Positions 1 through 35,370 of a DNA stretch of 35,370 bases are shown in pieces. Source of the stretch: a virus. Taxonomy: Duplodnaviria; Heunggongvirae; Uroviricota; Caudoviricetes. The stretch lies in IMG/VR virus record IMGVR_UViG_2778261227_000014. One strand, written 5' to 3'. The stretch's first letter is position 1. Every line of letters begins with the position of its first letter. The position numbers and the translations under genes are program-made. The notes below the pieces were generated by a model, which worked only from the letters and a program-made list of their open reading frames with translations, did not search any database and had not been told where the DNA came from.

Positions 1-62
1 GGTATCCGTTCTGCTGAAGTGTCATGGCGTTGATTTTACGGTGACTCTTCGACAGTGAAAAG

Positions 63-83
63 AAAAAAGGCCGCAGAGCGGCC
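63..83 (-). terminator. Candidate rho-independent terminator for the leftward int-side operon
   Basis: Hairpin ggccgc-aga-gcggcc at 69-83 preceded on the + strand by A6 (63-68), i.e. followed by a T-run on the - strand, about 110 bp downstream of the 193 stop. Confidence 0.4.
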
Positions 84-192
84 ATAAACACAAACAAAAA
101 TCAATAAGTTAGATAATTATCAAAAACTTACAGACACACAAAAACACAGCCAACCACAACAAATAACATAGATGTGGTCACTTTGTGGATCA

Positions 193-741
193 TCATCCAA
201 CAAATTTAGCAACAAATACAGCAACCGCCGCCGTGAAAATGGTTGTGCATACTGGCACAATAATGCCACTCCAACGCCACTTCGTATTATCATCAACCTT
301 GTCAAACCGCCGATTCATCTCATCCATAATCTTGTCAAAGCGTTTATCCATCGCTTCGGTAATCTCACCCTTCAGGCTGTTAATGTCTGATTTGATCTGA
401 TCTTTCAGGTGAGCTGTATCAGATTTAAGCTCCCCTTTCAGATTCGCAATATCGCATTTAAGATCACCTTTCAGATGTGCTGTGTCTGCTTTGAGCTCAC
501 CTTTCACCTCACCAACATCGGCTTTGGTTGAAAGGTTTGTAGTGCGTTCAGCAAGCGTCGCAAGGTCGTTTCTTGTTAGCGATAAATCACCTTCGAGTCG
601 CTCAATTCGCCTTTCAAGTTTATCTGACATTCCACCTCCACTATTACCGCCTCCTCCACTGAAAGATGGGTCATCATCAAAAGAGTTGCTAATGCCATCA
701 CGAATGGGGGTTACGCCATGCCCGCTTTTAGCACACGCCAC
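193..741 (-). CDS. Coiled-coil protein with about 11-residue repeats (LKGELKxDxAH) and a C-terminal hydrophobic anchor; function unknown
   Basis: Six-frame ORF; GTG at 741 immediately follows the upstream stop; alternative ATG at 630 preceded by a GGAGG-like stretch (which also encodes a Gly-rich linker). Repeats LKGELKADTAH/LKGDLKCDIAN/LKGELKSDTAH/LKDQIKSDINS, C-terminal IIVPVCTTIFTAAVAVFVAKFVG. Confidence 0.5.
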   Translation of the reverse strand: MACAKSGHGVTPIRDGISNSFDDDPSFSGGGGNSGGGMSDKLERRIERLEGDLSLTRNDLATLAERTTNLSTKADVGEVKGELKADTAHLKGDLKCDIANLKGELKSDTAHLKDQIKSDINSLKGEITEAMDKRFDKIMDEMNRRFDKVDDNTKWRWSGIIVPVCTTIFTAAVAVFVAKFVG

Positions 742-1140
742 TCAGATTCCCTCCCAAACTATATATCCTTTATCTCTTGCCCAACGAACAACTGTGTGAG
801 CTGTATATGTGGATGTGAAGCCGCAATAAGAACATGACACTTCATACCGGAAATTGTAGATGCTAATGGGGCCGTTATCCTTACGTATGGGAGTGACATA
901 TTCCCAATCTTTTGAACCATCATAATCATCAAGTTCATGATCAGTGCCGTGAACAACCGTATGTGGAACAAATAGATCTGGGCGTCCACACGAGAGACAA
1001 GAGGTTTTAGCACCTCTATCTGTGAGAAATTGAATAAATAATTTGGGCGTAATTTTCTGCAAGGCCTGCACATGCTCACGTTCCTTATCATTAAGAGGCC
1101 TGCCAAGATATAGAAAATCATCAAATTTAAGAGGCTTCAT
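742..1140 (-). CDS. Cys-rich (CxxC...CxxC) hypothetical protein, possible zinc-ribbon
   Basis: ORF with ATG at 1140 preceded by GGAG 9-12 nt upstream; the track start at 1155 is TTG. Overlaps the integrase 3' end by 14 nt. Contains CLSCG and CSYCG motifs. Confidence 0.5.
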   Translation of the reverse strand: MKPLKFDDFLYLGRPLNDKEREHVQALQKITPKLFIQFLTDRGAKTSCLSCGRPDLFVPHTVVHGTDHELDDYDGSKDWEYVTPIRKDNGPISIYNFRYEVSCSYCGFTSTYTAHTVVRWARDKGYIVWEGI

Positions 1141-2119
1141 ATACGGCTTCTCCAAGAGGATTAAATTTCACCGCATCCTGCAAGTAATCCGGCGCAAGAT
1201 GGGCATAAATCATCGTTGTCTGAATCTTTGCGTGCCCCAGAATTTTCTGGAGCGTCAGAATATTGCCGCCGTTCATCATGAAATGACTGGCGAAGGTGTG
1301 GCGCAGCGCATGAACAGCCTGGCCGTCAGGAACATCAGGTGCGACCGTTTTGATGACATCGCGAACCAATGAATAATCCAGCGTCGGAAACACCAGTTTC
1401 CCGCCCCGTTTTTTGATCTTTTCAAACAGGCTTTCAGAAATAGGAACGGTACGGTTTTTGCTGTTCTTCGTTTTTGAAAAAGTGATTCGACAATGAAGAA
1501 CGCGGCGCTGCTCCAGTGCCGCTACCTCGCCCCATCGCGCCCCGGTCGATAAAAGGATTTCGACAGCCAGCCGCTCATCGGGATTTTCAGCCAGTGCATC
1601 CAGCAACTGAACACATTCAGACTTACTCAGATATCCCATTTCGCGTTCGTTAACCTTCATTCCTTTCAGGCCTTGAATGGGGTTATCGTTAAGAAAATGG
1701 CCGGATGAGATGAGTGCGGTAAACATCGCGCTTAACGCCCCAATCTCTCGATTTATGGTGCTGGGCTGTATCCCCTGCTCTATCCTGGACACACGTAGCT
1801 CGGTGAGCATCGTTGTATTAAGTTTATGCACGCACGGGTCATCCATTGCCTCACTCAAGCGCAGCAATTTAAGGCGCGTGTTATGCCCTGACTTCATTAG
1901 CTGGCCGTGGTATTTCCACCACAAGTCAATAAGCACTGACAGCGGACGGCGATCAATGGAGTTTCCTTTCCACTCATTGTTATGCAGTTGTGCCAGCACC
2001 CACCGCTCATATAAAACTGCATCTGATTTCGTTTTAAATTTTTTTCGAATGCGTTTGCCTTTACGCCCCTCTGGGCGCATGTCAAGAAGATACCCTCCCG
2101 GAATTGATTTTATGCTCAT
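1127..2119 (-). CDS. int: Tyrosine recombinase, P2-type integrase
   Basis: 330 aa from ATG at 2119 (the track start at 2269 is an upstream in-frame extension). N-terminus MSIKSIPGGYLLDMRPEGRKGKRIRKKF resembles P2 Int; catalytic region contains ARWGE, HALRHTFASHF and LGHAKIQTTMIYAHL, the R...HxxR...Y signature of the family. Confidence 0.9.
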   Translation of the reverse strand: MSIKSIPGGYLLDMRPEGRKGKRIRKKFKTKSDAVLYERWVLAQLHNNEWKGNSIDRRPLSVLIDLWWKYHGQLMKSGHNTRLKLLRLSEAMDDPCVHKLNTTMLTELRVSRIEQGIQPSTINREIGALSAMFTALISSGHFLNDNPIQGLKGMKVNEREMGYLSKSECVQLLDALAENPDERLAVEILLSTGARWGEVAALEQRRVLHCRITFSKTKNSKNRTVPISESLFEKIKKRGGKLVFPTLDYSLVRDVIKTVAPDVPDGQAVHALRHTFASHFMMNGGNILTLQKILGHAKIQTTMIYAHLAPDYLQDAVKFNPLGEAVYEAS

Positions 2120-2168
2120 TCGTGAAACCCCAGCGTTACAAGACCACCATGCCCCCAGCGCTCCATGA

Positions 2169-2477
2169 TTAGCCGGGCTGTGTGCCAGTCTTGCGGGGTT
2201 TTTGAGAAGGCGATGTGCTTTTTGGCCCATCAGGGGAGAGAGACGGACTGATCTGCCCAGCAGCCTCATTTGTTTTTCCCGTCATAAGCCAATTCATGTA
2301 CTTAAAAAAGCGAGGGTGATTAACAATCTTGATAAGCACTTCGCCCCCTATGTTTTCAATCCGCCCCGTTTCATAACGACGCAAAGTGCCGATAGGCACA
2401 TCAATCAGGCCGCAAAATTCTTCGCGCGTTAAATCCTCTGATTCACGAATCACTCTAATTTTTTCACCGATAAGCAT
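2169..2477 (-). CDS. C: Immunity repressor, P2 C-like HTH protein
   Basis: About 102 aa from ATG at 2477. IRVIRESEDLTREEFCGLIDVPIGTLRRYETGR is a helix-turn-helix; overall pattern parallels P2 C. Divergent from the cox-like gene. Confidence 0.8.
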   Translation of the reverse strand: MLIGEKIRVIRESEDLTREEFCGLIDVPIGTLRRYETGRIENIGGEVLIKIVNHPRFFKYMNWLMTGKTNEAAGQISPSLSPDGPKSTSPSQKPRKTGTQPG

Positions 2478-2573
2478 TGACAGTGTTCCTATAAGTACAC
2501 TAAGCTTGCGCACAAGGTGTACTTATAAGTACACCAAGTCACAAACAACCACAGATAGCGCAGGTTATCACAC
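2478..2573. promoter_or_regulatory. Lysis/lysogeny switch region: divergent promoters and operator repeats
   Basis: Perfect 18-bp palindrome gtgtacttataagtacac at 2517-2534, and a direct copy of tataagtacac at 2490-2500 and 2524-2534, between the divergent C and cox-like genes. Confidence 0.6.
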
Positions 2574-2852
2574 ATGGCAAAAGTCCTGAACACACACGAA
2601 CAGGCAGACTTTGAGCGTTTAGCAGCGTTCTATCCCTACCGCGATGAGCATGGGTTACCAGTACTTGAAGAAAGCCTGAAAGATTACGCAAAGCGTACCA
2701 ACCAAGCTGTTAACACAGTGAAAAGACAGGCTGACAGAGGTTCAATTCCCATCAACCAAGATGAAAAGAACTCAAGACGCACAGTAAATCTCTTCGCTCT
2801 TTTCCTGAAAACAATCAGGAGCGCAGAAAAATACGTGCAGATGACAAAATAA
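2574..2852 (+). CDS. cox: Cox-like excisionase/early transcriptional regulator
   Basis: 92 aa; first gene transcribed away from the repressor. AKRTNQAVNTVKRQADRGSIPI parallels the HTH segment of P2 Cox (AKLIGKSTGAVRRMIDKGKLPVI, from memory). Confidence 0.6.
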   Translation: MAKVLNTHEQADFERLAAFYPYRDEHGLPVLEESLKDYAKRTNQAVNTVKRQADRGSIPINQDEKNSRRTVNLFALFLKTIRSAEKYVQMTK

Positions 2853-33963: not shown

Positions 33964-34629
33964 ATGAATATGCAAATTTTTATCGCACCAGCAGCCACAG
34001 TTGCTGCAGTCTGCCTTGCTGCATATTTTGCTTTACGAAATGAACGTAAAAAGAAAGCACTTGAGATTAGAACAACTCAACTAGATCGAATATCAGAGCT
34101 AGTAAACCGAGCATCTACCAATTTGATGCAATATACAGGTACTCTTGCCTCTATACTGGAAGCGCACGCCAAAGATAATTATCTACCGAACAAAAAATTT
34201 GACATTAATGTAATTAGCAAATGGAAAGATTGCCTCGATGAGAGTGAGGTCTGGGCGATTGATAGACAGCAACTAAGAACATGTCAGCACAGTCTGGAGT
34301 TTCATCGTGAAAAAGAATGGGCTGAATGGAAAAAAATAATTCCACCATTACTTGATAAAATTGACCAATTTTTTCTCATATCTAAGCCAGGGCAACCTGT
34401 TACGTTTATAAATGGCCAAAACAAAACAGCTGATGAACTACTTGTTTTCTCAAGATATTTGAGAAAACAAACAGCAGAAATTGAATCAGTACGTCAGCTG
34501 TTACTTTCTCAAATGAGAGAGGAATTCATCGAGTTAACTAGCTTTGAACCTGTCACAATGTTTAGCTTATTTAAATCAATAAAGAAAAATGTCATGCAAT
34601 TTTTCTGTATCAGTGCTCTTAAAAATTGA
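33964..34629 (+). CDS. AT-rich moron: protein with N-terminal TM helix, function unknown
   Basis: 221 aa, AAGGA RBS 8 nt upstream; N-terminal MNMQIFIAPAATVAAVCLAAYFAL is hydrophobic; composition distinct from flanking phage genes; followed by a terminator. Confidence 0.6.
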   Translation: MNMQIFIAPAATVAAVCLAAYFALRNERKKKALEIRTTQLDRISELVNRASTNLMQYTGTLASILEAHAKDNYLPNKKFDINVISKWKDCLDESEVWAIDRQQLRTCQHSLEFHREKEWAEWKKIIPPLLDKIDQFFLISKPGQPVTFINGQNKTADELLVFSRYLRKQTAEIESVRQLLLSQMREEFIELTSFEPVTMFSLFKSIKKNVMQFFCISALKN

Positions 34630-35099: not shown

Positions 35100-35312
35100 A
35101 TGGTCGGAGGGAATACCCGAAGGCCAGATGTGGAAAGGCCCCGGAAAACATCTCTGTTTAACCGAGGCCCTAACCGCATTACCTTGACAAGTGAAAGGTT
35201 AGCGCCTCTCCGGAAAAGGAGCAAGTGCTATGTCGCAAAAATCGCTTACGGCCATCACGTTCTGCGTGACGGCAATCCTCATCATCTGGATGTTGCACGG
35301 TTCGCTGTGTGA
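35100..35312 (+). CDS. Possible mok-like reading frame overlapping the hok-like gene
   Basis: 70-aa ORF overlapping the hok-like start in another frame, as in hok/mok loci; weak evidence. Confidence 0.3.
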   Translation: MVGGNTRRPDVERPRKTSLFNRGPNRITLTSERLAPLRKRSKCYVAKIAYGHHVLRDGNPHHLDVARFAV

Positions 35313-35370
35313 AATACGGATGAGCTTCTGGGGAGCGGAGTTTGCGGCGTTCTTACAGTGTAAGCAGTAA
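35230..35370 (+). CDS. hok: Hok/Gef-family type I toxin (small membrane peptide)
   Basis: 46 aa MSQKSLTAITFCVTAILIIWMLHGSLCEIRMSFWGAEFAAFLQCKQ: TM helix followed by the SLCEIR signature and AAF motif typical of Hok/Gef; GGAG RBS; the stop codon is the last 3 nt of the window. Confidence 0.7.
   Translation: MSQKSLTAITFCVTAILIIWMLHGSLCEIRMSFWGAEFAAFLQCKQ

Follow-up and report, generated by a model that had tools for sequence, protein, structure and literature searches.

Accessory genes of P2-like phages are often found at defined places, and the interval between the integrase gene (int) and the attachment site (att) is a minor defence hotspot that holds 3% of the recognised systems (PMC13586616); a "third hotspot" has been placed between a tail gene and CI (bioRxiv 10.1101/2024.10.15.618418). 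Here we describe two neighbouring genes from the int-att interval of a P2-like Escherichia coli prophage (IMG/VR record IMGVR_UViG_2778261227_000014; the 35,370 nucleotides (nt) analysed are hereafter called the window). One encodes a predicted zinc-ribbon protein, the other a tail-anchored coiled-coil protein (hereafter, the stalk protein). Comparative analyses indicate that they form one conserved two-gene module, in which the zinc-ribbon gene and the N-terminal peptide of the stalk protein are inherited together while the remaining coiled-coil/transmembrane (TM) bodies are swapped at a Gly-rich linker. Cargo in this hotspot is known; what is new is the specific, uncharacterised pair and its unusually clean modular design.

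The closest described systems each share part of this arrangement. Cargo of the P2-like hotspots (old/tin, Z/fun and the int-att interval) likewise consists of small uncharacterised genes inside an att-delimited element that are swapped among close prophages, whereas the pair has no PADLOC match and occurs also outside P2-like phages. XhlA of the Bacillus subtilis prophage PBSX, one of three proteins (with the holin XhlB and the endolysin XlyA) that PBSX-dependent lysis and vesicle release require (PMC5589764), is phage-encoded and has a short N-terminal coiled coil and one C-terminal TM helix, and in lambda-like phages of Mannheimia a gene for an XhlA-domain protein with one TM helix adjoins cI (PMC4553209). 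In contrast to XhlA, the window protein carries an additional peptide at its N-terminus, a Gly linker and a long stalk of 11-residue (hendecad) repeats, and is always accompanied by a zinc-ribbon gene. The DUF1640/CCDC90-like proteins (MCUR1, CCDC90B), whose eukaryotic members have been described as scaffolds (bioRxiv 10.1101/2025.10.14.682030), resemble it in a beta-layer motif at the stalk start, one C-terminal TM helix and the RefSeq naming of its homologues; the window protein differs in having just a ~32-residue helix in place of a globular head, a stalk of hendecads that vary in copy number, and a prophage context rather than a role as organelle scaffold. By analogy only, lambda RexA/RexB also combine a soluble and a membrane protein in a repressor operon, with expression expected in the lysogen, but there is no sequence or fold similarity, and RexB is polytopic whereas the window protein is a tail-anchored stalk. 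The literature on DUF1640, XhlA and tail-anchored or zinc-ribbon prophage proteins yielded no description of the pair.

Recurrence of the two-gene module

Homologues of both proteins were found in several genera with conserved synteny, which indicates that the two open reading frames (ORFs) are real genes rather than chance ORFs. The pair directly follows int in a Klebsiella P2-like element. In a 186-like prophage of Citrobacter braakii the order is repressor, zinc-ribbon gene, stalk gene and int, the first three genes being joined by ATGA/TGATG overlaps and int starting 13 nt past the stalk stop codon. In two siphoviruses, SPN3UB of Salmonella (gp24/gp25) and ST101-KPC2phi6.1 of Klebsiella, the pair is located between an antirepressor region and genes for the tail, and in a Providencia stuartii prophage it adjoins an ogr-like gene. 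A lone pair was also detected in a Pantoea/Mixta chromosome, between cdaR and DUF3461/dapD/glnD, with zero phage genes within 6 kb.

At the IMG/VR zinc-ribbon loci, the downstream ORF ended in a TM helix in 76 of 79 evaluable cases, represented by 45 distinct partner sequences, and one lineage (L081-L087) apparently has a small two-TM protein downstream instead, as judged from one ORF scan. A scan of genome contigs gave 2 loci only. Given that the pairing is kept across contexts, we rejected the view of the genes as two independent morons.

Exchange of bodies at the Gly-rich linker

The features relevant to the exchange are as follows.

742..1140, minus strand: predicted zinc-ribbon protein of 132 amino acids (aa), phrog_4293, without a Pfam family; its CxxC knuckles (nt 988-999 and 823-834) flank a variable insert
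193..741, minus strand: tail-anchored coiled-coil membrane protein, 182 aa from GTG 741; the internal ATG 630 gives a 145-aa form, named DUF1640 in RefSeq
658..741, minus strand: variable N-terminal peptide (N-peptide), aa 1-28, inherited jointly with the zinc-ribbon gene that precedes it (N-peptide clusters track zinc-ribbon clusters)
631..657, minus strand: Gly-rich linker GGGGNSGGG, the recombination joint, which also supplies a GGAGG Shine-Dalgarno sequence for the conserved Met (ATG 630-628)

The N-peptides, zinc-ribbon proteins and bodies of 63 IMG/VR loci were clustered separately. The coiled-coil/TM body of the window type was paired with three zinc-ribbon types, each having its own N-peptide, and one zinc-ribbon type, with the peptide NI(H/Y)xxDFPKH, was paired with three unrelated bodies. 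No N-peptide type was common to different zinc-ribbon types, save for a spurious cluster (Next14) that was mis-parsed. The same boundary was seen at the DNA level within E. coli, where the window allele (A) and the O157:H7 allele (B) are 90-100% identical (mostly 93-100%) from the att arm to position ~650 and only ~40% identical, which is the background level, upstream of it; the breakpoint lies within the 27-nt stretch coding for the Gly linker. These patterns indicate co-inheritance of the zinc-ribbon gene with the N-peptide and swapping of the bodies at the linker. Because each zinc-ribbon type has its own N-peptide, the data also fit a role of the peptide as the docking site of the cognate zinc-ribbon protein. 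If true, the split between sensor plus docking peptide on one side and stalk plus TM helix on the other would be a handy model for the exchange of parts in modular immune systems.

Allelic states at the E. coli locus

The occupants of the locus were counted in the ~281 complete E. coli genomes that have the same attP arm (window ~100-198).

Window allele (A), 14 genomes: 132-aa Cys-rich gene and stalk gene
O157:H7/O145 allele (B), 23 genomes: 166-aa gene and nearly identical stalk gene
SCU-387 allele (D), 86 genomes: 110-aa gene and 145-aa gene
O104:H4 type (C), 158 genomes: single unrelated 131-aa gene

These four states (14 + 23 + 86 + 158) cover the arm-bearing genomes. The 166-aa and 110-aa genes look unrelated to the window gene at the DNA level, yet all share a zinc-ribbon protein signature (F..FL, C..CG, a variable insert, then Y..C..CG...Y.A..V..W). 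The 145-aa partner in SCU-387 is a diverged stalk protein, with the same head helix, FATKSD, 11-residue repeats and a C-terminal TM helix. As alleles B and D are thus diverged homologues of both partners, 123 of the ~281 prophages carry some allele of the module, which at this locus is found in ~2% of complete E. coli genomes (123/5426).

In 56% of the sister prophages an unrelated gene stands in place of the pair. The original prediction treated the genes as extra cargo, to be given up should they turn out to be core genes of the phage lineage; comparison of related prophages showed that the pair is variable, with allele A in just 14 of the ~281. The core-gene explanation was rejected, given the unrelated gene in most sister prophages and the lack of a match at this place in P88-like phages.

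The commonest occupant of the int-att interval is the 131-aa protein WP_000416308 (3091-3486 in the O104:H4 locus L005; also in 157 other genomes), for which neither Pfam nor PADLOC gave a match.

The predicted zinc-ribbon protein

A Cys-rich, possibly zinc-ribbon ORF overlapping the 3' end of int had been recognised from the sequence, and both the ORF and the overlap were recovered. The gene starts at ATG 1140, with GGAG nine bases 5' of it, and overlaps the int stop codon (1127-1129) by 14 nt; its product begins with MKPLKFDDF, and the same ORF is annotated by RefSeq in a 99.1%-identical prophage. Its two CxxC pairs are C48/C51 and C103/C106, and these four Cys and one Trp are invariant in an alignment of 46 sequences with identities down to 17-30%. 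An exhaustive profile search of 1.84 billion representatives retrieved a small family of 69 clusters at 50% identity, the members of which are 83-180 aa long, apart from one weak, partial match, and none of which has a Pfam domain. No significant match of the zinc-ribbon protein was found in Pfam, NCBIfam or PADLOC, and PDB sequence searches with single proteins and profiles gave just a marginal, generic zinc-ribbon match (6htj, E 0.039). A first AlphaFold2 (AF2) model built from 8 sequences was discarded as too weak, with a predicted local distance difference test (pLDDT) score of 61.9. We predict a small cytoplasmic protein in which a variable insert separates the two zinc-ribbon CxxC knuckles.

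The stalk protein and its start codon

Past the conserved Met, the stalk protein consists of a ~32-residue heptad helix followed by three features.

517..534, minus strand: LSTKAD, a beta-layer motif with Ser replacing Ala (residues 70-75 in the 182-aa form)
286..516, minus strand: stalk made of seven 11-residue hendecad (a-d-h) repeats, with a 33-bp DNA repeat at 402-506 within them
208..264, minus strand: C-terminal TM helix IIVPVCTTIFTAAVAVFVA (Kyte-Doolittle 19-residue value 2.43)

The 11-residue LKGELKxD repeats and the C-terminal anchor, as first noticed in the translation, were confirmed. Tandem Repeats Finder reported a 33-bp period at 402-506 (3.2 copies, 73% matches), and the protein units, of 11 residues each, comprise five of the LKGELKxD type and two of the MDKRFDK type, and the hydrophobic residues fall at 1, 4 and 8 of each unit, i.e., the hendecad pattern. 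The Kyte-Doolittle peak covers residues 160-178 in 182-aa numbering (123-141 in 145-aa numbering) and ends 4 residues from the C-terminus. Counted from the Met, homologues in E. coli, Salmonella and Citrobacter (P0008-P0045) are 112, 123, 134, 145 or 156 aa long; because these lengths step by exactly 11 residues, the stalk varies by whole repeats. The beta-layer motif of DUF1640 stalks has been defined as [aliphatic]-A-T-K-[polar]-[DE] (PMC4786415), and the corresponding residues are LSTKAD in the window protein and FATKSD, YATKED or YANKED in homologues. Trimeric beta-layer constructs were matched by the stalk profile only marginally (7o92, E 0.001).

Profile searches, which had been suggested for both proteins, returned sub-threshold family matches or none: neither had a significant match among solved folds, Pfam or PADLOC, and the other Pfam, NCBIfam and PADLOC matches of the stalk protein (such as Apolipoprotein, Mer2, ZorA and LmuB) are coiled-coil noise. 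The window stalk protein scored 25.8 bits against PF07798 (DUF1640/CCDC90-like), below the cut-off of 33.5, and some of its close homologues have precomputed PF07798 matches. This resemblance, with the beta-layer motif, the C-terminal TM helix and the scaffold function described for eukaryotic family members (bioRxiv 10.1101/2025.10.14.682030), would suit a host-directed lysogenic-conversion factor, that is, an MCUR1/CCDC90B-like membrane scaffold that recruits the zinc-ribbon protein and alters a host process. We consider such a role rather unlikely, as the Pfam score is sub-threshold, the extreme allelic diversity and module swapping suit conflict systems better, and the pair is confined almost wholly to temperate phages. 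Small E. coli plasmids of the Col(156) MOBQ type have also been listed as carrying genes with a DUF1640 domain (PMC13516913, Table 2).

The second sub-threshold resemblance is to XhlA (PF10779, cut-off 34.7 bits), for which homologues scored 16.5-28.6 bits and the window protein had no match. The short homologues in SPN3UB and ST101-KPC2phi6.1 reached 26-29 bits over nearly the whole profile, and there are weak PHROG matches to holins, spanins and hemolysins. A lysis accessory that works with a holin, as PBSX XhlA does, would account for these similarities; it is nevertheless improbable, as all XhlA matches fall below the threshold, the stand-alone copy has no nearby phage genes, and an unrelated gene replaces the pair in more than half of the sister prophages. 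The neighbourhood also argues against it, as no holin or endolysin gene adjoins the pair, which is flanked by int and att, by a repressor gene and int, or by genes for an antirepressor and a lipoprotein.

RefSeq is inconsistent as to where the stalk gene starts, placing the start at the internal Met in some genomes (DUF1640, 134-156 aa) and annotating the long form in others (CCDC90 family, 170 aa). In the window, GTG 741 comes directly after the TGA of the zinc-ribbon gene and is preceded by GGGAGGG 7-8 nt upstream. The upstream part of the long ORF is uninterrupted over 28-37 codons in all the lineages examined, despite differing sequences, its indels are in frame, it usually ends with a D/G-F/Y-P-x-H/Y motif followed by the Gly-rich run, and in several lineages the ATG of the stalk gene overlaps the upstream stop codon. 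This favours the 182-aa ORF over the 145-aa RefSeq start, and the 111-nt intergenic gap implied by the latter was rejected as probably coding. The Gly-rich run and the Met are present in 66 of 79 IMG/VR partner ORFs; since this Met is conserved and the Gly codons before it provide GGAGG, it is plausible that both GTG 741 and ATG 630 are used. Whatever the function of the pair, the start of this "DUF1640" gene needs correction where RefSeq is inconsistent.

Attachment site and operon context

The attachment site, which was left unidentified when the genes were first noted, was mapped by comparing the window, as left junction, with an empty site (L003) and a right junction (L002).

62..83, no strand: attL core and host ihfA terminator hairpin (empty site in L003, attR in L002, window 1-83 in 5426 E. 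coli genomes)
59..83, minus strand: intrinsic terminator, stem 83-69 and T-run; 6 G-C pairs, loop of 3, tail TTTTTTCTTT
84..192, no strand: phage-side att arm (window 100-193/198 kept in ~281 genomes, mostly with other cargo)

The core common to attB, attL and attR is GAAAAAAGGCCGCAGAGCGGCC, located at 62-83 in the window, and its attR copy is at 8466-8487 in L002. Window 1-83 is host DNA with a match in all 5426 complete E. coli genomes, most of which match those 83 bases alone, and we read window ~100-198 as the phage arm of the attachment site, because ~100-193/198 is matched at 94-98% identity in the ~281 genomes regardless of cargo type. The prophage is inserted between btuC and ihfA; in the STEC388 prophage (99.1% identical to the window), btuC is directly to the left and ihfA is ~290 nt past the right end of the window. 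With the attL core at 62-83 and the host DNA ending at 83, both genes (193-1140) belong to the prophage and lie between int and the att arm, in line with their presumed position, and a location outside the prophage was rejected.

The terminator that had been proposed beyond the cargo is real (minus strand, 83-69 plus T-run); it is the host ihfA terminator and att core. The core is the bidirectional ihfA terminator hairpin, integration leaves a full hairpin and T-run at both junctions, with the attR copy still terminating ihfA, and the attL copy is the first terminator past the int-cargo genes, upstream of btuC. Whatever the pair does, the attachment site of this prophage group can be corrected to the ihfA terminator.

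Two minus-strand ORFs beyond int and in its orientation are present, as had been described, and window 1-2600 encodes four co-oriented minus-strand genes in all: a helix-turn-helix (HTH) repressor, the integrase, the Cys-rich ORF and the 182-aa ORF. The first two are:

2169..2477, minus strand: HTH immunity repressor (P2 C type), with which the presumed C-int-cargo operon begins
1127..2119, minus strand: tyrosine integrase (Int_N 99.8 bits, Phage_integrase 72.1 bits), its stop codon overlapped by the start of the zinc-ribbon gene

The int, zinc-ribbon and stalk frames overlap or abut, with the att-core hairpin as the first terminator, and a search of the int-cargo stretch for the sigma-70 consensus gave no minus-strand match, although a consensus scan may miss a weak promoter. 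The pair looks like the distal end of a C-int lysogeny operon, and its start/stop arrangement indicates translational coupling. In the original prediction the genes were int-proximal morons; they are accessory cargo, as that term implies, but they have no evident promoter of their own, their terminator is the att core, and they are not two independent genes.

The overlap with int and the nearness of the attachment site could also point to accessory factors of integration or excision that act with Int. This is very improbable, as the pair is far from any integrase in the siphoviruses, its chromosomal copy has no integrase, most prophages of the same int/att type lack it, and no DNA-binding family was matched.

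The closest isolated phages, P88, 520873 and Shae_phiSM, are ~95-96% identical to the window over the replication and structural genes. These P88-like phages have no match to the window left of ~2902, i.e., the int, repressor and cargo region, which indicates that the integration/immunity module (1127-2902 region) has been exchanged relative to them.

Proposed function

The placement in a repressor/integrase operon, the variable locus, the autonomy of the pair, its near-exclusive occurrence in temperate phages, and its allelic divergence and part-swapping suggest an accessory conflict cassette, which probably has a role in phage-versus-phage conflict. More specifically, the pair may be expressed in the lysogen and serve exclusion or abortive infection, a tentative assignment to which we give slightly less than an even chance. 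In this model, the stalk protein would be a trimeric rod that extends from the inner membrane into the cytoplasm, and its N-terminal peptide would dock the cognate zinc-ribbon protein, which could be the specificity or sensor part that is held on the stalk and controls it. The XhlA/holin-like membrane protein would serve as effector or membrane tether, and use of both start codons would give a docking-competent long form and a short form. Expressed in the lysogen, the pair would act on superinfecting phages via exclusion or abortive infection.

Several observations weigh against this proposal. No anti-phage activity or phenotype is known for the pair, and in PADLOC-DB v2 the zinc-ribbon protein had no match and the stalk protein only coiled-coil-level matches to ZorA/LmuB (E >= 1.7e-4, <= 18.4 bits). 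A later AF2 model of the zinc-ribbon protein reaches only moderate confidence (pLDDT 72.5), and comparison with known structures gave no informative neighbour. Adjacency together with a recombination-prone linker could yield the same co-inheritance of N-peptide and zinc-ribbon gene. We infer expression in the lysogen by analogy with P2 operon logic. Lastly, location is weak evidence, given the small share of recognised P2 defence systems in this interval and the presence of non-defence cargo in hotspots.

A toxin-antitoxin (addiction) function overlaps with abortive infection and would explain some of the same features. Here, the tail-anchored protein would be a membrane-damaging toxin, and the coupled upstream zinc-ribbon gene would encode the antitoxin, stabilising the prophage. 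The gene order (a small soluble gene first, a membrane gene second, with start/stop coupling), the autonomous cassette in the Pantoea/Mixta chromosome, the XhlA resemblance of the short homologues and a Hok/Gef toxin gene at the other end of the same prophage are in line with this idea. However, the pair has no homology to known toxin-antitoxin families, and known membrane toxins are usually far shorter and without a long, length-variable cytoplasmic stalk, and we view the toxin-antitoxin function as unlikely, albeit the most credible of the alternatives to an exclusion module.

Taken in full, the exclusion proposal would imply an unrecognised two-component, membrane-acting anti-phage/exclusion family in temperate phages of Enterobacterales, with a zinc-ribbon sensor on the peptide of a trimeric stalk, shuffling at the Gly linker, a length tuned by hendecads and dual-start isoforms; this complete picture is possible, though doubtful. 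A defence or exclusion system of this kind would be a compact new family missed by current defence-finding tools, and would occur also in phages of Salmonella, Klebsiella, Citrobacter and Providencia.

Other cargo in the prophage

The Hok/Gef toxin gene is at 35230-35370 on the plus strand, past ogr and near attR inside the prophage (PF01848, 29.9 bits, cut-off 22), and the 190 nt upstream of it may contain the usual hok regulatory RNA elements. The element therefore has cargo at both ends. Between gpD and ogr, a 221-aa ORF (33964-34629, plus strand) with an N-terminal hydrophobic segment gave no Pfam or PADLOC match. The STEC388 prophage, 99% related to the window, here encodes a DUF2971 protein on the other strand, and thus the gpD-ogr interval appears to be another variable cargo locus.

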